From Dehalococcoidia bacterium (GTDB taxonomy: Bacteria; Chloroflexota; Dehalococcoidia; E44-bin15), in contig JBAZEO010000006.1 of the NCBI GenBank assembly GCA_041653935.1, forward strand, positions 6,504 to 70,503: a stretch of DNA of 64,000 nt, in the 5' to 3' direction. Shown piece by piece: positions 46,138-59,742 of the stretch. How positions within the stretch are numbered: the stretch's first letter is position 1; each line of letters starts with the position of its first letter. Made by a program: the position numbers and the translations under genes. The notes below the pieces were generated by a model. It did no database searches. It had not been told where the DNA came from and saw nothing but the letters and a program-made list of their open reading frames with translations.

Positions 46138-47310
46138 CTACGAGGTCGTGGCGTGCACGATGCCCGCACGACCGCTGTAGTCAGCACGCAACTGAGGCAC
46201 CATGATCGCCATGACCTTGAAGTTCAGTTGCATTCCGCCACGGGTTTCCCACTGGACCGTGGTGATGTCCATGCCATTGACGGCACGGGCAACGTCCGAG
46301 GTCATCTGGACCAGCAGCAGCGTGAAGTCGTCAGTGAGGAAGTCCAAGCGGCGGACGTCCTGGATACCCTCGATCTTGCGCAACCGTTCGCGCAGCGTCT
46401 GGGTTGGCGCAGCCATGCCCGTCGTGGCCAACGCGAAGTAGTCGTTGTCCAGATAGGTGTCCCAGTCGTCGGAGTGGTAGAGCATGTATGGACCATAGAA
46501 GTGGTCGTCGTACAGCAACTGACGCATCTCCAGAACGTCCTGCACAGTGCTCGACGGATTGCTGCCCGTCGGCGTGGTCAAGTCCGTCTTCTCGTTGCGC
46601 TGCGGGAAGTTGGTGTACCCGTACACCGTGGGAATCTCATAGTCAGCGTAGTTGGCAGCCTTACCGAAGCTGATGCCAGTCTCAGCTCCGATGAGGGTCT
46701 TCTCAACCATCTCAGCGACACGGCGACCGGCAGCCTCAGCCATGGTCAGGTCCAGGGGCGTGCCGCTATTGCGAGACACCGCAAGATTGCGCTGGCTAAA
46801 CCAGAACGAGCTGTGCGTGATCGGCAGAGGCAGACCACGGTTCTTAAACAGTGGACTGTCGGTGCGTCCCTCGGTGAGACCGTCCATGTCCACGATGGCC
46901 TCGCCAGGATCACTCATGGCTTCACTTTCCAGCACGGTCTTGGCCATGCCGTTGAAGCCACCGAAGCTCGACGCAGCCGCAAGATCAGTCCACGCACGCA
47001 GACGCTGACGGGCTTCCTTCAGAATCTGGCGATCCATCTGGATCCACTCGTCCTTGCGCAGGCTGGTGGCATTCCACACGGGCGTGCCCATACCGTTGGA
47101 CGCCAACTGGCTGATTAGTGCCTTCTTGTACTCAGGCACGTACACACCAGTCTTGTCCTTGACCTTGCGTCCCGTATTCACGGTAACGCAACGCTGACCA
47201 CGCTCGTCGAAGTAGGGGCGCATCATGCCGGGATCGAACCGGCAACCAGCGAGGGCACCAGCCACGTCTCCGTAGCCCTGCCCGTTTTGCACGAAGTCTT
47301 GCACGAACAT
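46138..47310 (-). CDS. major capsid protein (HK97-fold, DUF2184/encapsulin-like type)
   Basis: 390 aa. Lies downstream of the scaffold/protease and a small head gene, and is followed by a strong hairpin. The family call is from memory of similar head modules. Confidence 0.6.
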   Translation of the reverse strand: MFVQDFVQNGQGYGDVAGALAGCRFDPGMMRPYFDERGQRCVTVNTGRKVKDKTGVYVPEYKKALISQLASNGMGTPVWNATSLRKDEWIQMDRQILKEARQRLRAWTDLAAASSFGGFNGMAKTVLESEAMSDPGEAIVDMDGLTEGRTDSPLFKNRGLPLPITHSSFWFSQRNLAVSRNSGTPLDLTMAEAAGRRVAEMVEKTLIGAETGISFGKAANYADYEIPTVYGYTNFPQRNEKTDLTTPTGSNPSSTVQDVLEMRQLLYDDHFYGPYMLYHSDDWDTYLDNDYFALATTGMAAPTQTLRERLRKIEGIQDVRRLDFLTDDFTLLLVQMTSDVARAVNGMDITTVQWETRGGMQLNFKVMAIMVPQLRADYSGRAGIVHATTS

Positions 47311-47930: not shown

Positions 47931-50195
47931 CTACGCTTCGGGCTTGGCCCAGTTCACCGTCGGCAACGGCAGATAGTCGTTGTCATCGTCCTTCGTGCCC
48001 ACGTTGGCCGTAGGCGGTACCGACGCCCCAAAGTAGCTCGGCACGTTCTGGCTCTCGTTCACAAGCGGCTTGGCCAACGCAGCCAAGTTCTGGAGCGTGT
48101 CCAACGGCATGGCGTTGAGCTGTTCCTTCGTGAACTTGTTTTGGGCGTTGCCAGTGATCACACCGATGGCCACGTCCTTGCGCTCCTGCTTGATGCTGCG
48201 CGCAAGGGCGATGTCTTCCATCTGCTCTCGGGTCAGGACGTTGCCCGTGGGTTTCTCTTCGTCCACAACTTCTTCCTCCTCTTCGTCCGCTGCCGCCATC
48301 TTCTTCTTGATGAATTCCGGCATAGCGTTCACGGTGATCTTGGAATCCATGCCGAACCCTTCACGGGCGGCATTTACGACAGCGTCGGCTTGGAGCTGCT
48401 TCTCCAATGCGGTATCCAGCTTGTTGAGCTGGTTGTCCGTCAGGTCCATCAACTCATCGCGATCAGCCTCATCCCAGCAGCAGCTATTCTCGATGAGGTT
48501 ATCCACGATATCTTCGCGGCTTTTGGTCATATCTGACCTCCTTCTACGTTGGTTACGAGTTTGGCCAGACTGGCCTGGATTACCCTTTGACACACGGATG
48601 GTTGTTTCACCATAGCCGAAGTCTACAAGCGTAGCTGTAAGGTCGCCCTTAGACATCGCTTCCTGCACGTTCTTGCCACCGGAGATGCTGGGTATGTTCT
48701 GACTGTGAGTGTGTTTCCACCCGTCATTGATCATCTTGGTTCGTACCTTGCCGATATCTTCCGAGGCTAGAACAGACTCCTTCCCATGTCCGGCACGCAC
48801 ATTAGCATCAGCCACGACCATCTTCTTACTGCCTTGATAGGGATTCTGTGTCGTAGCAATCCCAGCACTGCTTAGCACCTCTGCAGTTTTCTTACTGGGT
48901 AGATCCTTGCGTGCTTTGTGCATCGCAATAGAGATAGGCACTTCGTCAGTACCAGACACGCGTTGAACGGCATCACCCTTGAGTGTTGTAGACTTTGCTT
49001 TCTTAGGGGCAACTGCTTTCGCAGCATCAGCGGCCTCACGACCCTTCCTACTGGCTGCCCCAGACTCTTTCCACAGCTTGCTAGCCTCTTCTTTCTCACC
49101 CTTGTCAGACATCTTGCGAGCCTTGGCTGCCAGCTTGGATGCCTCTGCCTGATACTTCTTGGCATCAGCTCTGAGCGATTCATAGTCAGAGCCACCACCC
49201 GCTTCGCCCTTGTACGACGCCTTCTCGGTCTCAGCGGCAGCACGATCTTCGCTAGCCTTAGACTTAGCGTCTAGTTCAAGTGCCTTCCGCTTGGCGATTG
49301 TTTCACGCAGTGGGCCTTCCTCAATAGCGGCAGCTTTGCCGTACTCTTCCTGCTCTTCAAGATCTGCCATTTCCTTGGTGAGACTGGCCTCTTTCTTCTT
49401 CAGTGAGTCAATCTCACCAGCACCGCTCTTGGCAGCACCATGGGCCTTGGACGCACCCTTGCCGCCAGTAGCTCCACCACCTCCACCTCCGCCCGCACCG
49501 AACTGGCCTTTCGCATCACGGGGTTGATTGGGGTTGTAGGCGTTCTCAACACCTAGCAGCACAGCGAGGCTCTGGAGCACAGACAATTTCTCTTCAAGCG
49601 GCACGGTAGTATCTCCTGTGTGGTTGACCAGCACACCACAGCCGTCCCTGAGGGAACAAGCACCGATCTGATCAGGCAGGATTGCCAAGTGATCCGGTCT
49701 GTAGTTGCGTGCCACGTGCGTATAGAGCTTGCCGTCCGGCGCAGTAGAGCCGTTCTCTGCTGGCTCGTTGTCCGTGTACAGCCCCGTGCTCAGCTCCTGC
49801 GGCTCGTTCCGCAGCAATGCGTCGTACACTCGCTGGTCTACGGTACGTGTGCGCTCTGCGTCAAACCAGCCCTCGGCGGTCAGCTTGCCGTTATAGGCAG
49901 GCCGGCGCACGTAGCCGATCCCTTGCTTGTCCAGCACTCCGGGCGACTGGGCAGACACGTGCGATCCGTCTACCGATTGCGGATGGTAGACCACGATCGG
50001 CATCTCGTTCCATGCCATGAAGTCCCGCTCAATCTCGTCAGCGGGATAGTACAGAGGCCCCTGTGATCCATTCAGGACACCGGGAACGATCAGCGTCAGA
50101 GGGGCAACAAGATACTCGCGTCCGCCACGGAACTGGCGTCGCGTCTTACCTGTCACGTTCGCTGTAATAGAATGGAGCATGCTTTTCCTCGGCAA
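47931..50195 (-). CDS. prohead protease/scaffold fusion protein (DUF2213-like N-domain + long coiled-coil)
   Basis: The N-terminal GREYLVAPLTLIVPGVLNGSQGPLYYPADEI...MPIVVYHP resembles DUF2213. It is followed by AYNPNQPRDAKGQFGAGGGGGGG, then a K/E/A-rich coiled-coil. Confidence 0.55.
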   Translation of the reverse strand: MPRKSMLHSITANVTGKTRRQFRGGREYLVAPLTLIVPGVLNGSQGPLYYPADEIERDFMAWNEMPIVVYHPQSVDGSHVSAQSPGVLDKQGIGYVRRPAYNGKLTAEGWFDAERTRTVDQRVYDALLRNEPQELSTGLYTDNEPAENGSTAPDGKLYTHVARNYRPDHLAILPDQIGACSLRDGCGVLVNHTGDTTVPLEEKLSVLQSLAVLLGVENAYNPNQPRDAKGQFGAGGGGGGGATGGKGASKAHGAAKSGAGEIDSLKKKEASLTKEMADLEEQEEYGKAAAIEEGPLRETIAKRKALELDAKSKASEDRAAAETEKASYKGEAGGGSDYESLRADAKKYQAEASKLAAKARKMSDKGEKEEASKLWKESGAASRKGREAADAAKAVAPKKAKSTTLKGDAVQRVSGTDEVPISIAMHKARKDLPSKKTAEVLSSAGIATTQNPYQGSKKMVVADANVRAGHGKESVLASEDIGKVRTKMINDGWKHTHSQNIPSISGGKNVQEAMSKGDLTATLVDFGYGETTIRVSKGNPGQSGQTRNQRRRRSDMTKSREDIVDNLIENSCCWDEADRDELMDLTDNQLNKLDTALEKQLQADAVVNAAREGFGMDSKITVNAMPEFIKKKMAAADEEEEEVVDEEKPTGNVLTREQMEDIALARSIKQERKDVAIGVITGNAQNKFTKEQLNAMPLDTLQNLAALAKPLVNESQNVPSYFGASVPPTANVGTKDDDNDYLPLPTVNWAKPEA

Positions 50196-50308
50196 TGATC
50201 AGTTACCGACGAAAAGCATAGCCCCCGCTCGTGGGTCTTAGTAGCCCACTTCTACAAGAAGTTTACGTACACATAAACGGGCCAGACGCCCCCTTACCCC
50301 ATGGTACC

Positions 50309-50584
50309 CTACCCGTCCCCCTCGTGCCCCAGCAAGCGCACCCAGCGATACAACCTAGCACGGTCGCGGTACTCGCACAGCACGTCTTGCCCGCGTGGTC
50401 GCAACGCCTTGCGTATCTCGCCTAAGTGCCGACTGATGTTCTTTAGTGGCCCCATCTCATCAGGCAGGCACGCATGCAACTCCGCCTTGCTGTGCGGCAG
50501 TCCATCACTCAGCACCTTCAGCATTGCCGTTTGCGTAGGTGTGAATCCTTCCCTCATCATCTGCTCCTTCTTCAACACCAGCAC
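50309..50584 (-). CDS. stand-alone winged-helix (OmpR/PhoB C-terminal-like) DNA-binding protein
   Basis: FTPTQTAMLKVLSDGLPHSKAELHACL...ISRHLGEIRKALRPRG...YRWV follows the Trans_reg_C pattern. Confidence 0.45.
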   Translation of the reverse strand: MLVLKKEQMMREGFTPTQTAMLKVLSDGLPHSKAELHACLPDEMGPLKNISRHLGEIRKALRPRGQDVLCEYRDRARLYRWVRLLGHEGDG

Positions 50585-50662
50585 TGGTCAGTTCTTCGGG
50601 GGTGGGCCACGGTGTTCTATTAGGAATGTACGGTGTGTCTGGTAACTGCGAGAATGGTTGTG

Positions 50663-53600
50663 TCATAGGAGCCACTCCTTAGACTTAGATGAGACTTGGT
50701 CTACCCACGGCGGAAAGATACCCTGCTTGTACCGTGGATCTGTGGTCAAGGCAAAGATCTCACAGAATGCTTCCTCAGCATTCTTGCCAGCGTAGCTAGT
50801 AACATCTGTCCCAACGGTGCTTGGAACCATGCTTCTCCACTCACGCTGTTGTTCGTTTGACAGCTTACCAAATAGCTTGTGACCGTACTCATGTCGTAGG
50901 ATAGCAGCATAGCCACCAACACCACCAGCCGTAGGTTGACCTGGGACTAGATCAGACCCGCTCTCGCCACGCCAGAACGGACTGTCGTAGACGTGAGTTG
51001 CAGCCCGTTCCTCTGCCGCACATGAACGACCCTTCTCTTGCCTCCTGAAGATAATAGGAACGTCACCATGCTTCTCAGCAAACTCCTGATATGCAGGGTT
51101 CGCCCTATTGGCATTCGCAGCATTCTGTATCTCCAAGTGCAGCTCTGGGTCAAGGTCCTTGAAGGCAGGCTTGTCGCCCTCGTTCCCCTTCTTAGACCGT
51201 AGCACCTTCTTCCAGTTATCCACGATCTCTTCATGGGACGGCCTGTTACTTGCGTCCAACCGTCCTTGCTTGATCATGTGGTCAGCAAATCCCTCAGCCT
51301 CACCAGCAATCAGCTCAGCAGCCTCGTTCACATTAGTCACAACGACTTGACCACCGTGCGTCTTCGCCCACTGCTCGGCTTCCTTCAGTGTGCTAAACTT
51401 CGGCGGAGCGTCTGGTATACTCTCGTGACCCACACCACCTCCCCCACTGCTCCATTGGCCTTTGTAGTCACGTGGTTGATTGGGGTTATAGTTAACCACG
51501 CTGACCGGTCGCTTCTTGGCGATACGCTTGTCAGGGCCTACCCACTTGGTTCGCTTACGTTGCTCCGCCAGCGTACGCTTCTTAGGCTTCTCAGCCTTCA
51601 AGCTCTCGGTGATAGCAGCTTGGATCTCCTCCTTGCGGCGCACCTGTTCCTTCTGCGGCTCGCCCACGTTAGCGGGTAGGTGTGCGCATCTACAGTTGCT
51701 GACTACTAGTCCACCACTATAATACAGGCTAGTTGCTGTTGTGGCATCAAAAGCAAGTCCTTCATACTCGGTAAAGGAAACACTATGAATCCGCTCCCAC
51801 TTGAAGAGGTTAGGCAACGCTACTTGGCTGGAGAAAGTCTGTGTTCTATGCAGCAACGATTCGGGGTCAATCGTAGTGCAATTAAACTCCGTCTCGAGAG
51901 AATGGGGATCGTCCTCAGAAGATACACCCCTGCTGAGAAGGCCAAATTTGCTTACGAAGCTAGAAGGGGCCAGACTGACACTATGGCCACTAAGCTGGCT
52001 AGAGCCACTACTAGATCGAAGCTCGGTCTTGGGGTAGGTTCCTGCGAAGTTGCCCTCTCGCAATTTCTCGACGCCGAAGGAATCCCATACTCCCAGCAAA
52101 CCACGTGCGGGCCATATTGCCTCGACTTTACCCTGACAGAACACCCTATCGCCGTGGAGATCCGAGGACGTGGCTACAATCCCAGAGTTGCCCGTAACTC
52201 TAAGAAGAGACTCAAATATGTTCTCGACCGTTGGAACTTGATTTACATTCAAGCCTGTGGAAGACCCATTCTTCCGGTGGTCGTAGAGTACATAGTCGCC
52301 TTCTCTAAGCTGTGCCGCAGGAACCATTCCTCTAGGGGTGAGTATTGGGTGATTAGGTCCGATGGTCGTCCGAGCCAACCCGCTCCGCAGGGTAAGTACA
52401 ATAGCTGGGCCGCAATACCAAGCCCGGACCAGCTCCTCGCATTCGCCATAAGAAGCAAACGATGATCCAGCAAACACAGCATTAGGATGCCTCGGAATCA
52501 TGCCCCTCGCTTCTTTTATTGTGAGCACTACACCGTCCATGGCTTGACATAGTCTACACACCCTACCGTCGCCAGCCGTATCCCACTCCACCATGACGCC
52601 TACTTCGGTCACGCCTAGTCGCTCCATAGCGTCTAGCTGACCTTCTGCATGGCTGCGAATTACTTCTGTCCTCGCAATAGTCGCAGCCCTATTGGAGCCG
52701 AAGCCTAGCTCGTCCTTGAGCCGTCGTGCTAGAACGTGTGGATTGTCGCCACGTGCGAAGCCTTCAGTCAACTCGCGACTGACTACTACGGCCATCGCTT
52801 CAGTCACGCCCTTCAGATCAGTGAACACGCGACCCGCCATGAGTTGAACCTTCTCAATGCTCATGGGCCTGCCGAAACTGCTCCGTAGGAACTCCTCCTT
52901 CGTGCCGTTGTACCATCGCATATCCTTCTGCACAGCCGGTACTCTCACGTCGTCAAAGGCACGACCCTGTCCCTTCTGGTAGGCCTCCTCCACAAACTTG
53001 CGCCAGTACGCCTCACCCAGTCCGTCGTCCTTGCCAGCCAGCACCTCGTCCTTCAGCACCCCCTGCAACCACTTCAAGAACGCCGCTATCTGCTGCGGCC
53101 TACTCTGAAAGACCCACCGTGCGTTCGTCGCTAGTTGGTTGTGAGTAGCCTTCCACTTCTTACGCTTCGCTTCCCAGATCTTTCTAGCGTCTGGATTGGC
53201 TGGTGCCTTACCACTCAGCCATGTAGGATAATCCACAGACTTTGTAGGTGTGGCCTTCTTGACAACTGGGGGCTTGCTAATCCCAGGGAGGATAGATTTG
53301 CTGGGTTCTACGGTCGACGCGGTCCCAAACTTACGATCCATAAGATCTTTGACTACGGCTGACGACCTTGGTAGTTTGTCTGTGAGTGATTCTGCATGTA
53401 GGTCTGCCCCTAGATGGTACGCTGTCAGATGGGCAAACGATTCATTTCGACCTTGGCTTCTACCAGTCAAGAAATAGTTATGCTGCCCATACTTCTCTGC
53501 GGCACTGATAGATCGCATATCCAGCTTGTACGCTTCAGCAAACGTATCAGAGCTAGACCAATCATTTTCAACATCTAGTACGTGCCCTACTTCGTGGGCT

Positions 53601-55039
53601 ACAGCGTAGAAGTTCCTTTCCTCATCGGTGCTTGTGGGGTCTAGCTTCTTAGCCATGTCACCCGCATGAACCTTCTCAGAGAAGTTCAGTTCCTTCTTGT
53701 CATAGTTGACAAAGGCGTTTGCCCCCTGTTTACGCATCTCTTCGTCTGAGATTGACTTAACAACCCATCCCTTAGATTCTACAAACGCCTTGATGGATGA
53801 TGGTAACTTGTCATAAGCTTCTAAGGTAGTATCAGCAGCTCCACCACCAGAGCCCCATCTACCACGAGCATCCCGTGGTTGATTAGGATTGTATGCGTTC
53901 GCAGTCACGCCCTTGTAATCGCCCACTCTCCACTCTGTCTCGCCCGGATTGTAATAGAGGTCCTTTACGTCGGCGGTCCTGATGAAGATAGTGCTGGCGG
54001 GCTTCGCGTCCTTCAGATGGTCTGGCCAGCCCGTACCCATGAACAGCGGAAACTGCTTGCCTTCCAGCGACACAGCCTGAAGCACAGCGAAGTCGTTGTC
54101 GCCGTGTTGCAGCATCAGGTCGTTCACACGTGCCTCAGACACACCGTGCGTCACGCCAGCACTAACCAGCTCGTCTCTAGTAAGTTCGCCTCTAGCTGCC
54201 TTCCGTGCAATGTTGAGGCCGTCGCGGTACTTCTCAGCGTTGTCTTTCGTGGTAAACGAGATCAGGTTGGAAGCACTGCCGCCCAGCGTCTGCTGACCCA
54301 GCTCGTCGCTGCTCTTCAGGCCCTCTGTCTTGATCTTGTCTGCTGCGAACGTGGCATGATAGAGCTGGTCTGGTGGCTCTACGTAGCCTGGATGCCCCGG
54401 TCGCAAGCCGCTCGGCGTAGCCAGTCCTTCAATCCGTTGCAGCTCCGTAGACTGTCGCTCACGGTCCTTCCAGTACTCCTCTCGCTTGCGTTCCGCCTCT
54501 GCCTTGGTTGCCTCGCTGGACTGCCGCAGCCGTACGTCCTTGATATCCAGTCCCATCTCCTCATGCTCTTTGAGGGCCAGCCTAGCATCCTCAACGGACA
54601 TGGTCGCTACGATGTCGTCGTTGTCGTCCAGGAACTCCACATCGCCGGTCATGTCACTCGGCAGCTTGTCGGCTGTGAACACACCACCAGCTCCACCACC
54701 GCCACTACTCCACTTGCCCTCTGCATCACGTGGTTGCGAAGGGTTGTAGGCGTTCAACGTACTCTCACGCACCAGACCAAACGCGTCCTCTACCAGCAAC
54801 AGGTCTTGGATCTGCTTAGCCACTCGTGCAAACCGCCTACGTAACTCCACCTCAAACAAACGCCGCAACGTAGCAGTCCTACTTGGATCACTACGTAGTG
54901 GGTTCTTGGCCTTGCGTGGATTGCCTGCATTAGAAGTGAGAGGGCTGCCAGGGTGTGACCCTGTGCGTTCCTCGGGTAAGGTACGACCCCTGCTCCCCGA
55001 GGAGACAACAACCCTCTTGCGTGGCTTAGCGATCACCAT
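50663..55039 (-). CDS. polyvalent head protein: MuF/SPP1 gp7-like morphogenesis domain (intein-interrupted) fused to two zincin-like HExxH domains and other modules
   Basis: 1458 aa. HEVGH at about 53583-53597 and HEYGH at about 50879-50893. The MuF hallmark CRLC...HPN|CRC is split by a 262 aa insert. Three copies of YNP(N/S)QPRDxxGxWxSGGGG. Confidence 0.7.
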   Translation of the reverse strand: MVIAKPRKRVVVSSGSRGRTLPEERTGSHPGSPLTSNAGNPRKAKNPLRSDPSRTATLRRLFEVELRRRFARVAKQIQDLLLVEDAFGLVRESTLNAYNPSQPRDAEGKWSSGGGGAGGVFTADKLPSDMTGDVEFLDDNDDIVATMSVEDARLALKEHEEMGLDIKDVRLRQSSEATKAEAERKREEYWKDRERQSTELQRIEGLATPSGLRPGHPGYVEPPDQLYHATFAADKIKTEGLKSSDELGQQTLGGSASNLISFTTKDNAEKYRDGLNIARKAARGELTRDELVSAGVTHGVSEARVNDLMLQHGDNDFAVLQAVSLEGKQFPLFMGTGWPDHLKDAKPASTIFIRTADVKDLYYNPGETEWRVGDYKGVTANAYNPNQPRDARGRWGSGGGAADTTLEAYDKLPSSIKAFVESKGWVVKSISDEEMRKQGANAFVNYDKKELNFSEKVHAGDMAKKLDPTSTDEERNFYAVAHEVGHVLDVENDWSSSDTFAEAYKLDMRSISAAEKYGQHNYFLTGRSQGRNESFAHLTAYHLGADLHAESLTDKLPRSSAVVKDLMDRKFGTASTVEPSKSILPGISKPPVVKKATPTKSVDYPTWLSGKAPANPDARKIWEAKRKKWKATHNQLATNARWVFQSRPQQIAAFLKWLQGVLKDEVLAGKDDGLGEAYWRKFVEEAYQKGQGRAFDDVRVPAVQKDMRWYNGTKEEFLRSSFGRPMSIEKVQLMAGRVFTDLKGVTEAMAVVVSRELTEGFARGDNPHVLARRLKDELGFGSNRAATIARTEVIRSHAEGQLDAMERLGVTEVGVMVEWDTAGDGRVCRLCQAMDGVVLTIKEARGMIPRHPNAVFAGSSFASYGECEELVRAWYCGPAIVLTLRSGLARTTIGPNHPILTPRGMVPAAQLREGDYVLYDHRKNGSSTGLNVNQVPTVENIFESLLRVTGNSGIVATSSDLHGDRVFCQGKVEAIWPARGLLGVWDSFGVEKLREGNFAGTYPKTELRSSSGSSQLSGHSVSLAPSSFVSKFGLLSRGVSSEDDPHSLETEFNCTTIDPESLLHRTQTFSSQVALPNLFKWERIHSVSFTEYEGLAFDATTATSLYYSGGLVVSNCRCAHLPANVGEPQKEQVRRKEEIQAAITESLKAEKPKKRTLAEQRKRTKWVGPDKRIAKKRPVSVVNYNPNQPRDYKGQWSSGGGGVGHESIPDAPPKFSTLKEAEQWAKTHGGQVVVTNVNEAAELIAGEAEGFADHMIKQGRLDASNRPSHEEIVDNWKKVLRSKKGNEGDKPAFKDLDPELHLEIQNAANANRANPAYQEFAEKHGDVPIIFRRQEKGRSCAAEERAATHVYDSPFWRGESGSDLVPGQPTAGGVGGYAAILRHEYGHKLFGKLSNEQQREWRSMVPSTVGTDVTSYAGKNAEEAFCEIFALTTDPRYKQGIFPPWVDQVSSKSKEWLL
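51695..52480 (-). other. intein (Hint domain, 262 aa, Ala-1 ... Ser-Asn / Cys+1) inserted in the HPN|CRC motif of the MuF domain
   Basis: N-side: RHPN-AVFAGSS...LTLRSGLARTTIGPNHPILTPRGMVPAAQLREGDYVL (blocks A/B-like). C-side: YEGLAFDATTATSLYYSGGLVVSN-CRCAHLP (blocks F/G-like). Removing it restores HPNCRC. Confidence 0.7.
51785..52465 (+). CDS. HTH + Vsr/DUF559-like PD-(D/E)XK endonuclease (homing-endonuclease candidate) encoded antisense inside the intein
   Basis: 226 aa with AAGGAA 6 nt upstream of the ATG. N-terminal HTH VRQRYLAGESLCSMQQRFGVNRSAIKLRLERMG. Core EVALSQFLDAEGIPYSQQTTCGPYCLDFTLTEHPIAVEIRGRGYN...RLKYVLDRWNLIYI matches E..l...L...G....Q.....y..Df......iavEidG. AGA/AGG-rich codon usage, unlike the neighbours. 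Confidence 0.55.
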   Translation: MNPLPLEEVRQRYLAGESLCSMQQRFGVNRSAIKLRLERMGIVLRRYTPAEKAKFAYEARRGQTDTMATKLARATTRSKLGLGVGSCEVALSQFLDAEGIPYSQQTTCGPYCLDFTLTEHPIAVEIRGRGYNPRVARNSKKRLKYVLDRWNLIYIQACGRPILPVVVEYIVAFSKLCRRNHSSRGEYWVIRSDGRPSQPAPQGKYNSWAAIPSPDQLLAFAIRSKR

Positions 55040-55326
55040 CAGTCATAGACCTCGTAGTCAAAGTCATCTTCCGGTGGGCAGTAGGCTGGTATCATGGCCT
55101 CGTTGGCACGGCGGATCGCGGCCTTACCTTCCTCAATCTCGTCGTGTGTAGGCTCGTAGCAAGTCTCGTTGCGGCGCATGTTAGCACCTTGCAAACGTAG
55201 GATCCTACACATCCTCGCATGTGAACACCCGTACGCGACCGCCAGCTTGTAGGCAGGCTCGCCGTTGTTGTATCGCCGCAGCATCGTGGCGATCTCTTGC
55301 TTCGTGAACGTTCTGCTCTTGCCCAT
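55039..55326 (-). CDS. small HTH DNA-binding protein
   Basis: TKQEIATMLRRYNNGEPAYKLAVAYGCSHARMCRILRLQG. The stop overlaps the MuF start (TGATG). Confidence 0.5.
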   Translation of the reverse strand: MGKSRTFTKQEIATMLRRYNNGEPAYKLAVAYGCSHARMCRILRLQGANMRRNETCYEPTHDEIEEGKAAIRRANEAMIPAYCPPEDDFDYEVYD

Positions 55327-55345
55327 GGCTCAGTCTAATGTCACT

Positions 55346-57514
55346 TCAGTTTTTCTGATTGGGGTTCCAGTTGTCGGTGGGTTTCAGTTTGTCTGTCACG
55401 TCCACTATCTTTAGGCCACCACCATCCATAAGCTGATAACCCCAGGCCCTAGAAGCACTGGACAGCGGAACAGATCCATGAGATTCAGCGTACAGATCCT
55501 TTGACCCCCAATAGAACTTTGGATCCACTAAGGCTGACTCGTGCACTTCTACGAGCAACCCTGCAGAACCCTTAGCTGCTCCTCCATAGATCGGGATGGG
55601 CTCCTTAGAGAAGTTTGTAGTACCACCGTGATCAGCCGAACGACCAGGACCTAGCTCACCTGTTGTTAGAGCCTTATCAAAGTCTTCCTTTGTAACAAAC
55701 CGATAGACATAGTCTTCTCGCGGTACGACGGTATCGCTGAATCGCTTTGTTACAGGAGCATTGTCGACTTGCTGCTGGATTTCTGCTTTCACGCTTGCTC
55801 CTCCGCCACCGCCCCCACTCCCAAACTTACCATCGGCGTCACGTGGTTGGTTTGGATTGTAGTTCTCAACCTTCTTCTTGCTTGGGAACGCAGCCACCTC
55901 GTCACCCTCAGTCGTGACAACCTTCTCGCCCTCACGCATCTTGATAGTGCCGGGTGCTTCCTCGGGCACTGGAGGCGCAGGCACGTGACCGGGTACGATC
56001 TCGTCCTCGGTGTCTGGGTTGGTCTTCTCGAGCTGGTCCATGGCACCTTCCAGCACTTCGTCAACCTCGTTCTGCGGCATCTCCATGATCCGTGTGAGGA
56101 AGTCGTTGGGAGCAATGAGGGCTTCCACATTGCCGCCGATGTACTTGGCCATGGCGTCCACGCGCTGGACTGCCACCTGTGCCTTCTCCAGCTCACTCAG
56201 TGCTTCCAGGTCTGGCCATACTGCGGAGTAACCCTGAGGCTCAGGCAGCACACCTACCATGATGCAACGGTCCACGAACGGTATGATCATGCGAGGCGTG
56301 AGGTACTTACCCTGCCTAGCACGCATGCGATCGTTCCACGAGTCGCTATCCTGAGAAGAAGCCAGCTCGCCGCGCTCGGATCCTTCGAAGATACGGCGTG
56401 GAACAGCCAGTTCGATGCAGATAGCACCGATCTGAACGTCGATCTGCGGCGTAGGATCCACAACCTGCGGAGCTAGGCTCTTCGCACTCATGCCCATCAG
56501 AGCCATGTATCGCTGCAACCCGTTCATGTACTGCTCCATCTGCTCGCGCAGCGCAGCAGCATCCACGTTCACGTCGCCGCCTAGCTGCGGATGGGTCTCC
56601 AGCGACCAGCCGGGAAACGCTCCACGGAAGTACATTTCGGCACTACCACCATAGAGCTTGCGCAGGTCTAGGATCCTGTGCAATACCGGCTTCATGCGCG
56701 GCGTGCCGAAGATCTCAGAGCTGCCGCAGTTGTCGGCGATGTGAATGACTCTGGTCCAGTGCACCATCTTGGTAGCAAAGGGTAAGCCAATACCACCCTT
56801 GGTCCACTCGTTGGGGTCGTTGAACGTGATGCTGTACATGACCGGCTGACCATATCGCGGCGATGTAGGATTGGTCTCGTACTGAGCAATCTGCACCAAC
56901 GACTCATCAAACGCCCTCATGAACAACAGACGACGACCCTTGGTCTTGTCCTTGTCCACGTTCAGTGTGTACACGTTACCCGTAGGCTTGGCTGGTGCCT
57001 TCACTTCCGCGGGCTGCTCTTGGCCCTTGACTGGAATGTCTACAGGCTCGGACCACTTCTCCTCGACGCCGCGGACTGGCTTGCTCAGCTCTTGGCCGTC
57101 ATCCAGACCTAGCAGCAGCACACCGAAGCAGCCTATTCCACTCAGCACGTCAGCACGGCGCAGGTACTCCCAGATCGGTGAGCCTTCCTCGCCTTGGCCA
57201 CGGTACCAGCTACGTCCACGTAGGCTGTTGCTGAGGTTTTCCCATGCTGTCTCAAACTCCGTGGTCGCCTCGCTGTCCTCGTCCTCGTACACCTCCGGCT
57301 CGTTCTTCCAGGACTCGTTAGGTATCACGTTGACCACGCGATTGCCGATAGGATCCTCGTCGTACAGTTCACGGTAGCCGTTTGGCTCCATGCCGCCGTC
57401 AGGGTAACCGCACTCCACCTTGAGGTCACGCCGTGGATCCAGCAGCTTCTGCAGTAGCTCAGATCGCTGCATCATTGCGTTGAACAGAATTTCGTTGTTG
57501 ATCGCTTCGCTCAT
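55346..57514 (-). CDS. portal protein with C-terminal extension
   Basis: 722 aa, between the large terminase and the MuF gene. After NYNPNQPRDADGKFGSGGGGGG (about 55799-55861) comes an extra domain of about 150 aa. It ends in NWNPNQKN. Confidence 0.65.
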   Translation of the reverse strand: MSEAINNEILFNAMMQRSELLQKLLDPRRDLKVECGYPDGGMEPNGYRELYDEDPIGNRVVNVIPNESWKNEPEVYEDEDSEATTEFETAWENLSNSLRGRSWYRGQGEEGSPIWEYLRRADVLSGIGCFGVLLLGLDDGQELSKPVRGVEEKWSEPVDIPVKGQEQPAEVKAPAKPTGNVYTLNVDKDKTKGRRLLFMRAFDESLVQIAQYETNPTSPRYGQPVMYSITFNDPNEWTKGGIGLPFATKMVHWTRVIHIADNCGSSEIFGTPRMKPVLHRILDLRKLYGGSAEMYFRGAFPGWSLETHPQLGGDVNVDAAALREQMEQYMNGLQRYMALMGMSAKSLAPQVVDPTPQIDVQIGAICIELAVPRRIFEGSERGELASSQDSDSWNDRMRARQGKYLTPRMIIPFVDRCIMVGVLPEPQGYSAVWPDLEALSELEKAQVAVQRVDAMAKYIGGNVEALIAPNDFLTRIMEMPQNEVDEVLEGAMDQLEKTNPDTEDEIVPGHVPAPPVPEEAPGTIKMREGEKVVTTEGDEVAAFPSKKKVENYNPNQPRDADGKFGSGGGGGGASVKAEIQQQVDNAPVTKRFSDTVVPREDYVYRFVTKEDFDKALTTGELGPGRSADHGGTTNFSKEPIPIYGGAAKGSAGLLVEVHESALVDPKFYWGSKDLYAESHGSVPLSSASRAWGYQLMDGGGLKIVDVTDKLKPTDNWNPNQKN

Positions 57515-58039: not shown

Positions 58040-58993
58040 TCACACTATGGCTCCTGCAGTGCTGCGAGAGGTGCGTCCTGACAAGCCGAACACAGCAAGA
58101 CACACAGCCTCCAGTTCGTCAGGGCTGCAACCTATCAGGTCTACGAGGTTGATCTTGGAGTCAGTCTTGTTCACGGCGTCAGGCTTCTTGTGCTTGGGTG
58201 GTAGATACATTCTACCCTCCTCGTCAAACCACAACGGTATGGGGGCCATCTGCCCGCGTAGGCTGGGGCCACCGTCCAGCCTAGGCTTGTTGGCTATCTC
58301 ACTTGGTATGGCAAACGGTGTGGTCAACGCCTTCGGGTCCAGTCGCTCGCGTACGGTGCCGTAGATCTCAGCTCTGCGGTTCTTGTAGGCCATGCGCACC
58401 TCATCATCACGGTTGCGCTGCTCTAGGGGCTTCAGGCCCCTACGCTTCTCAGCCGTAGCAGGCGAGCCAAACAGGATAGCACGCACCTTGTGACCCGTCG
58501 TACGTAAACGGTCCACGTGTACTTTGCCTCCGCCTCCGTAGTCAAACAACACGTTCTCAGCACGTACGCCAAACCGGCTCATTATACCTAGCGTCAGACT
58601 GGGTATTACGGAAGTGTCCGGCGTCTTGCGGCTCTCCAGATACATGACACCGCTGTCGCTGGCTACGGCCCATGAGGTATTGTCCCCACCCAGAGCACTG
58701 TCCACCCCCATGGTACGGGCTGGTCCCACTGCCCTCCGTAGCTCCGCAGCGTTGAGCCACAACGGTGGAAACAGCAACGCATCCTCGCCCTCGTAGAACT
58801 CAGCGTCTATGCTGATGCACTTGCGTATGGGATCCCACAACTCCGTACGCTTGCAGTATTCGCCATAGCTCAAGACACCCGGTATGATGATCTCGTCAGT
58901 AGGCTCTATGCCTGCCGCAAGCTGCGCCTTGCCGAACCTTACGTTAGGACTATCGTGCCCCGTGATCTTGATGATCTTGCGGTAGTATCGCAT
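58040..58993 (-). CDS. terminase large subunit, C-terminal (nuclease, RNase H-fold) part
   Basis: MGVDSALGGDNTSWAV (first Asp), FDYGGGG, SPDELEAV. It begins with RYYRKIIKITGHDSPN, typical of the region after the ATPase motif III. Confidence 0.7.
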   Translation of the reverse strand: MRYYRKIIKITGHDSPNVRFGKAQLAAGIEPTDEIIIPGVLSYGEYCKRTELWDPIRKCISIDAEFYEGEDALLFPPLWLNAAELRRAVGPARTMGVDSALGGDNTSWAVASDSGVMYLESRKTPDTSVIPSLTLGIMSRFGVRAENVLFDYGGGGKVHVDRLRTTGHKVRAILFGSPATAEKRRGLKPLEQRNRDDEVRMAYKNRRAEIYGTVRERLDPKALTTPFAIPSEIANKPRLDGGPSLRGQMAPIPLWFDEEGRMYLPPKHKKPDAVNKTDSKINLVDLIGCSPDELEAVCLAVFGLSGRTSRSTAGAIV

Positions 58994-59106
58994 CAGCTAC
59001 CCAATGTAGATGTGAAAGCACCTAGCTATAAATTCGGTGAAGCACAGGCGCAGTTTTTCGTACCTGTACCTGATTGGATGTTCTGATTTTTGCTCGTCAA
59101 TAAACG

Positions 59107-59742
59107 TCATACTACCAACGTCTTGGGCTTGACAACCAAGTCACCACCCTTGACGCCTTTCTTGAAGAAGTTGGTGCAGGGGTAAGGGTTGCCGATGATT
59201 AGTTTACGCTCTGCCCACGTGTCCGCACGGTTGTAGCTCTCGTCGTCTACGCCACTAGCCTCGTCAGCCAGGAACAGGGTGCGCGGTATACCATCACCGG
59301 TCTTGGCTATGTGGTGCCCCAGCATACCCTCGCCCTTGGCTGCCACACGTCCTAGCATGTAGCTGAGACCGTCTACCTGCCCGTCTGGCATAACCTTGCG
59401 GAGGTGCATATGGTTGACCAGCAGAGGGCCACCCTTGGTGCTGTCCAGCGGTACCGCACTCTCTTGAATGAACCTACGTATCTCACCCCATAACACGCCC
59501 TCCAGTTGTGTAGCATCCACGCTCGTTGTCACGATGCGACAGGGGTGACGCGACATGAAGAACCACAGTGCTATGAACGCACTAACGAAGTCCTTGCCCA
59601 GCATGTTACCAGCAGGCACGAAGGTCTCGTCGTTGTCGCGTACGCTGTAGATGATCTCACGCTGCTCTCTATAGAAGGTCACGTGAGGCCACAGTACAGA
59701 GGCCATCCGCATAGGATCGGTAGCAGTTGCAATTGGCTTCAC
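59107..59742 (-). CDS. terminase large subunit, N-terminal (ATPase) part
   Basis: PAGNMLGKD (Walker A-like), TLFLADEASGV (Walker B), LIIGNPYP (motif III-like). GTG start overlapping the upstream stop. Confidence 0.7.
   Translation of the reverse strand: MKPIATATDPMRMASVLWPHVTFYREQREIIYSVRDNDETFVPAGNMLGKDFVSAFIALWFFMSRHPCRIVTTSVDATQLEGVLWGEIRRFIQESAVPLDSTKGGPLLVNHMHLRKVMPDGQVDGLSYMLGRVAAKGEGMLGHHIAKTGDGIPRTLFLADEASGVDDESYNRADTWAERKLIIGNPYPCTNFFKKGVKGGDLVVKPKTLVV

Follow-up and report, generated by a model that had tools for sequence, protein, structure and literature searches.

A short glycine-tailed peptide, (N/A)YNP(N/S)QPRDxxGx(W/F)xSGGGG, very probably serves as the conserved header of cargo cassettes in phage-head proteins. 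We analysed it in a stretch of 64,000 nucleotides (nt) from a Dehalococcoidia bacterium (GenBank assembly GCA_041653935.1, contig JBAZEO010000006.1; hereafter the window). There, according to a six-frame scan, three minus-strand head genes, encoding a portal, a MuF-anchored polyvalent protein and a prohead protease-scaffold fusion, together hold five full copies. These are the five near-identical copies, at the same coordinates, that had been reported in an original prediction made from the letters of the window. We further propose, with a probability of roughly 0.4, that the peptide is the site at which the prohead protease cuts cargo free from its anchor, acting as a release signal, a recognition signal or both.

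The motif and its place in three head proteins

The portal also ends in the truncated copy that had been predicted, NWNPNQKN, which retains the first half of the motif only and stands directly ahead of the stop codon; beyond the five full copies and this remnant, the six-frame scan of the window found no further copy. Eleven columns are invariant among the full copies. A degenerate DNA pattern for PxQPRDxxG(R/K/Q)(W/F) has 5 matches in the 4.85-Mb assembly, all of them the window copies, and the reversed DNA pattern, our control, has 0.

As had also been claimed, the copies lie at module boundaries (Table 1). The portal consists of a core (residues ~1–548), the motif, a C-terminal add-on and the truncated motif, and its homology to the portals of related phages stops at residues 492–548, just short of the motif at residue 551. 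The protease-scaffold protein has its protease domain up to about residue 190, with the motif starting at residue 218. The MuF protein reads leader, motif, module 1, motif, HExxH module 1, MuF domain with an intein inside it, tail, motif and HExxH module 2. Both of the HExxH motifs expected in this protein are present, at residues 482 and 1383, which places them 77 and 177 residues past motif copies 2 and 3. Portal C-termini and MuF proteins of the SPP1 gp7 type have an established location in the prohead interior. Based on family matches together with this topology, all three carriers in the window face the interior of the capsid.

Table 1. Coordinates of the motif copies, their carrier proteins and associated features in the window (aa, amino acids; pLDDT, predicted local distance difference test; ORF, open reading frame; E, expectation value).
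Feature	Position (nt)	Strand	Basis and remarks
Motif, portal copy YNPNQPRDADGKFGSGGGGGG	55799-55861	-	Six-frame scan; between portal core and C-terminal add-on
Motif, MuF copy 1 YNPSQPRDAEGKWSSGGGGAGG	54683-54748	-	Six-frame scan; contig L010 has a motif at the equivalent position
Motif, MuF copy 2 YNPNQPRDARGRWGSGGGAA	53834-53893	-	Six-frame scan
Motif, MuF copy 3 YNPNQPRDYKGQWSSGGGGVG	51428-51490	-	Six-frame scan; contigs L019 and L021 have a motif at the equivalent position
Motif, protease-scaffold copy YNPNQPRDAKGQFGAGGGGGGGATGG	49461-49538	-	Between protease domain plus helix 200-213 and the coiled-coil/scaffold part
Truncated motif NWNPNQKN	55349-55372	-	Portal C-terminal end, immediately 5' of the stop; first half of motif only
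Portal gene, 722 aa	55346-57514	-	Pfam Phage_portal_3 (7e-17); phrog_146 (1e-49)
Portal C-terminal add-on, ~140 aa	55373-55792	-	Without family assignment
MuF-anchored polyvalent protein, 1458 aa	50663-55039	-	Pfam Phage_Mu_F (PF04233), 3e-10, residues 753-845; segment homologies to orthologues
MuF N-terminal leader, residues 33-97	54749-54943	-	Aligns with MuF N-termini of contigs L010, L015, L019 and L021
Module 1, residues 121-382	53894-54679	-	Without family assignment; LYHAT, SFTT and GExEW common to its one homologue
HExxH module 1	53147-53824	-	HEVGH at residue 482 (nt 53582-53596); weak Reprolysin_4 match, E 0.06
MuF (SPP1 gp7-like) domain	52481-53146	-	Pfam; TIGR01641; phrog_758 (5e-32); 45-54% identity to orthologues
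Intein, 262 aa, residues 854-1115	51695-52480	-	In the HPN-CRC motif of MuF (inserted at the hyphen); Hint blocks read from sequence; intein-free relatives
MuF C-terminal tail, residues 1116-1182	51494-51694	-	Directly behind the MuF domain in orthologues
HExxH module 2	50666-51421	-	HEYGH at residue 1383 (nt 50879-50893); no Pfam match
Prohead protease-scaffold fusion, 754 aa	47931-50195	-	phrog_760 (2e-22); weak DUF2213; >850 homologues; AlphaFold2 model
Protease domain, residues ~15-190	49626-50153	-	pLDDT above 95; Foldseek; invariant His71, Ser136, His169
Major capsid protein	46138-47310	-	DUF6260 (1e-21); Linocin_M18/encapsulin (1e-5)

Conservation and spread

The motif extends far beyond this phage. 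A profile built from the five window copies and searched against 1.84 billion representative proteins returned 1,174 protein clusters at E up to 0.001 and 174 at E up to 1e-10; the best 150 matches are 284–3,010 aa long and contain 2–9 copies each. The logo drawn from 418 instances reads [KA][KAN](Y/F)(N/D/S)P(D/N/S)QPRD(E/D/A)xG(R/K)(W/F)(T/G/S)(S/D)GGG(G), with the Arg and the Gly of its core at 100%, Asp and Trp/Phe at 99% and Gln at 93%, and it shows no conserved residues upstream of the motif. No family in the Pfam scans, nor in an NCBIfam scan of the window proteins, covers the motif; two PHROG profiles merely start with it.

The conserved object is the peptide, not the DNA. The earlier observation of a shared DNA core holds insofar as a 23-nt core recurs in four of the five copies at no more than 3 mismatches, against a chance expectation of 0, but the codon tests reveal no signal beyond the amino acids. 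Among window copies, pairs of identical residues use the same codon 65 times where the codon usage of these genes predicts 57, and the likeness of the DNA is therefore essentially a by-product of peptide conservation. In 47 instances from other phages the Q-P-R-D codons vary freely, with both CGN and AGR used for Arg, and track genome G+C. A function at the DNA level, whether as a recombination signal or as an RNA element, is ruled out by this freedom of codons between phages and by the lack of excess identity within the window.

The families found alongside the motif point to phages. In 53 motif-bearing proteins the co-occurring Pfam families are ADPrib_exo_Tox, Phage_Mu_F, ART-PolyVal (ART, ADP-ribosyltransferase), GNAT, DUF7178, zeta toxin, PARP, Tpt1, NUDIX, portal and DUF2213; no conjugation family and no MPTase-PolyVal was matched in them. 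We counted the combination of MuF, portal, ARTs, NUDIX, zeta toxin and GNAT, without conjugation domains, toward phage specificity. A strict DNA pattern hit 55 places in 185,579 species genomes, mostly in Alphaproteobacteria, with some in Oscillospiraceae, Actinomadura, cyanobacteria, Planctomycetes, Chloroflexota and Acidobacteriota. Cultured strains with a match to this pattern include Flavonifractor plautii ATCC 29863, Nitrospirillum amazonense BR 12005, Methylocapsa palsarum NE2 and Lichenifustis flavocetrariae BP6-180914. In these bacterial genomes, 15 portals, S78 proteases and CdiA-CT-type nuclease domains, both RNase and tRNase, are encoded in or next to the ORFs that bear the motif.

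Searches of cultured phages gave less. Two consensus peptides of the motif, compared by tblastn with 50,697 cultured phage records, returned nothing at E up to 10, a result that the short queries may limit and that we do not take as absence, and long queries matched cultured phages in MuF or ART domains only.

A separate pattern was noticed in some bacterial genomes (L055, L070, L039, L063, L081 and the Nitrospirillum genome L033), which contain several paralogous ORFs of 200–460 aa with a shared stretch and the motif (e.g. AVRLARANDNLAKYSPDQPRD). These lie on megabase contigs among housekeeping genes, and may represent either the remains of prophages or a use of the motif outside phages.

Polarity and module swapping

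The motif is a header that stands ahead of a module, not a symmetric linker, and a domain almost always lies behind it. Its first copy falls no more than 60 residues from the N-terminus in 85 of 149 representative proteins, whose tails behind the last copy have a median length of 274 aa and are shorter than 40 aa in only 3; segments between motifs have a median of 226 aa, and Pfam domains begin 14–50 residues past the motif. Stand-alone cargo genes of related phages have the same polarity, with a variable leader of 27–75 aa, then the motif, then the enzyme. All-against-all clustering of the inter-motif segments was uninformative, single linkage having merged them into one giant cluster.

Related phages also exchange what stands behind the header. 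The viral contigs L010, L015/16, L019 and L021 share the terminase, portal, MuF and protease-scaffold proteins of the window phage, and its 160-aa protein and capsid protein are seen in L010 and L019 as well. Compared with these four relatives, the pieces of the window MuF protein that are kept are the leader (33–97), the MuF domain (632–853), the tail (1116–1182) and the motifs. The L015 protein has no cassette at all. In L010 the leader is followed by a motif, at the position of window copy 1, and then by ART-PolyVal; behind the MuF tail and a motif, L019 carries ART-PolyVal where the window protein carries an HExxH module; and L021, like L019, has a motif at the position of window copy 3, followed by a different module. 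Separate genes in L019 and L015 join leader and motif to a zeta toxin and to the ADP-ribosyltransferase ADPrib_exo_Tox, respectively. The swapping of modules that the original prediction had suggested is borne out by these orthologous MuF proteins, in which ART-PolyVal or other modules follow an equivalent motif position. The peptide stands where orthologue homology ends and variable modules begin, as pre-toxin demarcation motifs do.

The protease-scaffold protein

The protein that had been called scaffold/protease does have a prohead-protease fold in its AlphaFold2 model. A Foldseek search with the protease domain gave the T4 gp21 protease (5jbl; probability 1.00, TM-score 0.57, 170–181 columns) as top match and the human cytomegalovirus protease next, and the model thus identifies the DUF2213-like domain as a predicted protease of the T4 gp21/assemblin fold. 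His71, Ser136 and His169, which are invariant in 121 sequences, would form its catalytic triad, as judged from their spacing rather than from superposition. The remainder of the protein consists of a coiled coil and a conserved helical C-terminal domain common to most homologues, consistent with a scaffold.

A head-maturation protease gene adjoins the motif genes in the four related loci (DUF2213-type; L010, L015, L019 and L021) and in three of five other loci checked (L012, L020 and L022), some of the PHROG families involved being different. Twelve unrelated motif-bearing viral loci have Phage_portal (PF04860) instead of Phage_portal_3, an HK97-type Phage_capsid and Peptidase_S78.

Other short peptides were noticed among 120 protease-scaffold homologues. 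A regular expression for (F/Y)C(P/A)TGxGGG(I/V)DxxC, often with a glycine-rich tail, matches 6 of them, five just behind the protease domain (the FCxTG type of P0005, P0015, P0022, P0033 and P0077) and the sixth at the protein N-terminus. A W(I/V)TxxxGxH peptide stands just behind the protease domain in two (the WITxxGxH type of P0008 and P0069), and a His-rich HxH mini-domain occurs in 10. These look like interchangeable counterparts of the QPRD motif.

Proposed role of the motif

We propose that phages attach enzymes, toxins and zinc-protease-like modules to carriers that are built into the prohead interior. These carriers would be the portal C-terminus, the portal-associated MuF protein, the protease-scaffold protein or simply a short leader, and each module would open with the peptide and its glycine run, the conserved part being the recognition element and the glycine run giving access to it. 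A prohead protease of the assemblin/gp21 fold would then cut the cargo from its anchor, leaving it free in the head and able to accompany the DNA out of it. Products of stand-alone cargo genes would lose their short leader at this cut, much as T4 proteins lose their capsid-targeting sequence, and in the protease-scaffold protein the motif lies where a release site of the herpesvirus type would part protease from scaffold.

Strong selection at the protein level, fixed polarity and the restriction to carriers of the capsid interior argue together for a recognition element at the start of the cassette. A cut at this element is its likeliest function because a module fused to the portal presumably could not otherwise leave the virion, and because a gp21-fold protease is encoded here, prohead protease genes also adjoining the motif genes in the other loci named above.

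Several points weigh against cleavage, the first being that the cut itself is a step we infer. The motif has neither the known site pattern of gp21 (L/I-x-E) nor that of assemblin (V/L-x-A↓S, the arrow marking the cut), and the cultured-phage searches turned up no phage with virion proteomics that carries it. No copy lies in the major capsid protein. In the AlphaFold2 model of the whole protease-scaffold protein, the motif region has a pLDDT of 50–67 and is not docked onto the protease domain, and only 8 of 120 protease-scaffold homologues contain the motif, so that it cannot serve this protease family in general as a release site. The motif also occurs with differing portals (PF04860, PF06381), capsids (PF05065, DUF6260-like) and proteases (S78, DUF2213-like, other PHROG families), and given such divergent enzymes, cleavage requires that one protease specificity be kept throughout.

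The peptide could instead be a capsid-targeting or docking tag that works without a cut, much as encapsulin cargo-loading peptides do: a hairpin-like peptide would bind an interior partner, be it scaffold, portal crown, capsid inner face or DNA, and so load or hold the module. Its strict conservation does point to a binding partner, and such a tag would account for its place ahead of every module, not just between modules, and for its position at the N-terminus of stand-alone cargo, behind a short variable leader only. We nevertheless consider this unlikely, since a tag is redundant on the portal, MuF and protease-scaffold proteins, where cargo is already anchored inside the head, since motif-bearing phages have no common portal, capsid or protease family, and since a portal-fused module would not be ejectable without a cut.

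To a structural joint alone we assign a similarly small chance. Here a turn or hairpin with a glycine spacer would insulate domains for folding and, being shared, would let cassettes recombine at it. The constant location at domain boundaries followed by a glycine run, the swapping of cassettes at the motif, the half-motif at the portal end, which resembles a recombination scar, and the other short Gly-tailed motifs at the equivalent place in protease-scaffold homologues would all be expected of a joint. A passive linker, however, needs no R, D, G and W/F at 99–100% across distant phages and is not expected at protein N-termini, and the stretches of DNA that the copies share are too short, and vary too much, to support homologous recombination.

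A substrate site for the HExxH (zincin-like) modules of the same proteins is less probable still. HExxH is found in 53 of the 149 representative motif-bearing proteins (36%; 7 expected), the motif precedes each HExxH module, and autoprocessing of polyvalent proteins by an MPTase domain was proposed in the text of Iyer et al., 2017 (PMC5512222). The link to zincins is loose, however: 64% of the proteins lack HExxH, as do the motif-bearing ORFs of 15 of 23 viral loci (8 of 23 have it). Among those without are the close relatives L010 and L019, whose whole head modules were read and contain the motif. No MPTase-PolyVal match appeared in the 53 proteins scanned with Pfam, and the enrichment is equally explained if HExxH modules are a common type of cargo.

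Self-cleavage at the (N/D)-Pro bond by Asn/Asp cyclisation, akin to the NPTH site of FlhB/YscU, would suit a motif that is independent of protease, portal and capsid family and that has N or D ahead of its first Pro in 70% of the 418 instances, but it is highly improbable, since the residue is Ser, which cannot cyclise in that way, in 26%, no catalytic scaffold is evident in 16 residues, and an Asx/Ser-Pro turn is simpler.

Returning to release by the prohead protease, an extension of this proposal is that the header acts as a universal, carrier-independent load-and-release signal for the capsid interior across unrelated portal, capsid and protease families. We regard this wider claim as rather doubtful. 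If the claim is true, the header would be the first general signal for the sorting or processing of phage-head cargo and could readily serve to load capsids with foreign proteins.

Modules behind the motif

Module 1 of the MuF protein and the portal add-on had been thought similar to one another and faintly ADP-ribosyltransferase-like. Sequence tests supported neither idea: BLASTP between the two gives E = 26, i.e. no similarity, and Pfam and PDB sequence searches lend no support to an ADP-ribosyltransferase assignment, both segments being without a Pfam match at E up to 5 and without a significant PDB sequence match. The portal add-on had no relatives in the scan of viral contigs. For module 1, that scan likewise gave none, and a region search for homologues returned only the protein itself; its one homologue is the C-terminus of an unrelated 900-aa protein, P0255, where it again lies behind a motif (E 2e-60). 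The AlphaFold2 model of module 1, based on this two-sequence alignment, has a mean pLDDT of 53 and is too poor for a judgement of fold. The sequence hints LYHAT, SFTT and GExEW would fit an ART.

Neither HExxH module was assigned to a Pfam family, and the C-terminal one matched no recognised toxin domain. The MuF protein as a whole has no Pfam match to MPTase-PolyVal, ART-PolyVal or LPD domains, whereas its orthologues in L010 and L019 do carry ART-PolyVal.

The intein in the MuF gene

The intein lies inside the motif-bearing span and is not part of the motif system. L015, L019 and L021 are free of it and join residue 853 directly to 1115. The intein ends in VVSN followed by C, that is, a C-terminal Asn and then Cys, and its first residue is Ala (AVFAGSS) rather than a nucleophilic Cys, Ser or Thr; the inteins homologous to it in Gordonia phage Malisha and in a Pseudomonas phage begin with Cys.

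A 226-aa ORF on the plus strand (51785-52465) runs antisense to the intein interior and looks like a helix-turn-helix plus a Vsr/DUF559-like endonuclease. In 42 cultured phages, among them Gordonia Malisha (in gp5) and P. aeruginosa vB_Pae_BR313c, homologues of this ORF sit antisense within the gene at the MuF position. The antisense frame is open in those phages and scores E 1e-22 to 1e-24, compared with 1e-15 for the sense intein, and about 100 codons are conserved in the antisense frame only. Our literature searches found no description of this arrangement.

Other head genes

Downstream of the protease-scaffold gene lie the gene for the 160-aa protein and then that for the DUF6260/encapsulin-like major capsid protein, which has no long propeptide and aligns with its relatives from residue 1. 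Two small ORFs, 55039-55326 (-; 95 aa) between the portal and MuF genes and 50309-50584 (-; 91 aa) between the MuF and protease-scaffold genes, have helix-turn-helix-like sequences that are unusual inside a head module; the position of the latter matches that of the immunity gene of MuF toxins. Upstream of the portal, the large terminase (58040-59742, -) is split between two reading frames, one ORF encoding the ATPase (59107-59742) and the other the nuclease (58040-58993), with ~113–130 nt of AT-richer sequence where relatives have ~17 codons of one continuous ORF. This sequence has no Rfam match, and the split could reflect an insertion, a frameshift or an assembly error.

Comparison with known systems

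MuF polymorphic toxins, as presented in two papers (Jamet et al., 2017, PMC5576092; Bxa, PMC11699363), join a MuF anchor to a variable C-terminal toxin, with MuF proposed as the capsid-targeting part. The window protein also has a MuF domain, but its modules flank MuF on either side and include no recognised toxin domain. Term searches of these two texts found no mention of a conserved motif, linker, junction or cleavage site. Literature searches with literal motif strings gave unrelated matches only.

Herpesvirus assemblin has release and maturation sites in a protease-scaffold precursor, with the site (V/L)xA↓S. The likeness here is that protease and scaffold form one protein in which a site is expected at their junction, and that the fold and a His/Ser/His set are shared; the difference is that most homologues of the window protease-scaffold protein are without the present motif.

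Polymorphic toxins have pre-toxin demarcation motifs, VENN in CdiA and DPxGL in Rhs. These resemble the header in being short, sharply conserved peptides directly upstream of a swappable module, and CdiA-CT-type RNase and tRNase domains do stand behind the present motif in some bacterial genomes. Unlike them, the header is of unrelated sequence, follows a phage-head route rather than a secretion system and occurs in many copies per protein. Its DxxGR(W/F) part merely resembles the YDxxGRL hairpin of YD repeats.

In T4, the gp21 prohead protease cuts at (L/I)xE and so frees internal proteins and Alt, an ADP-ribosyltransferase, of a capsid-targeting sequence. Like the header, this sequence is a short N-terminal element on injected enzymes packaged in the head, and here too a gp21-fold protease is encoded beside the cargo. 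The two have no sequence similarity, the (L/I)xE pattern is not conserved in the motif logo, and unlike the T4 element the motif is internal as well as N-terminal and is repeated ahead of every module.

How injected enzymes and toxins are chosen, loaded and released is known for a few model phages only (T4, P1 and N4). That one short peptide heads cargo modules irrespective of their carrier, in more than a thousand protein clusters from uncultured phages and prophages, gives this question a concrete sequence to mutate, allows a motif-only search for head cargo in metagenomes and offers a candidate handle for capsid packaging.

Also close are the phage-type polyvalent proteins (Iyer, Burroughs, Anand, de Souza and Aravind, 2017; PMC5512222), large proteins that combine MuF, ART, NUDIX, zincin-like and other effector domains. 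Their genes neighbour those for the portal and head, and packaging, injection and processing into units are proposed for them. The MuF protein of the window is likewise a multi-domain protein, with several unrelated domains in one ORF between the portal and protease-scaffold genes. The processing enzyme proposed there, MPTase-PolyVal, was matched neither in the window proteins nor in the 53 motif-bearing proteins, a term search of that paper's text found no junction peptide, and unlike the polyvalent proteins it describes, the window has the header also on the portal and the protease-scaffold protein. The header peptide is apparently undescribed, within a known class of proteins, and it supplies a candidate site with which the processing put forward for polyvalent proteins in 2017, when no site was known, can be tested directly.

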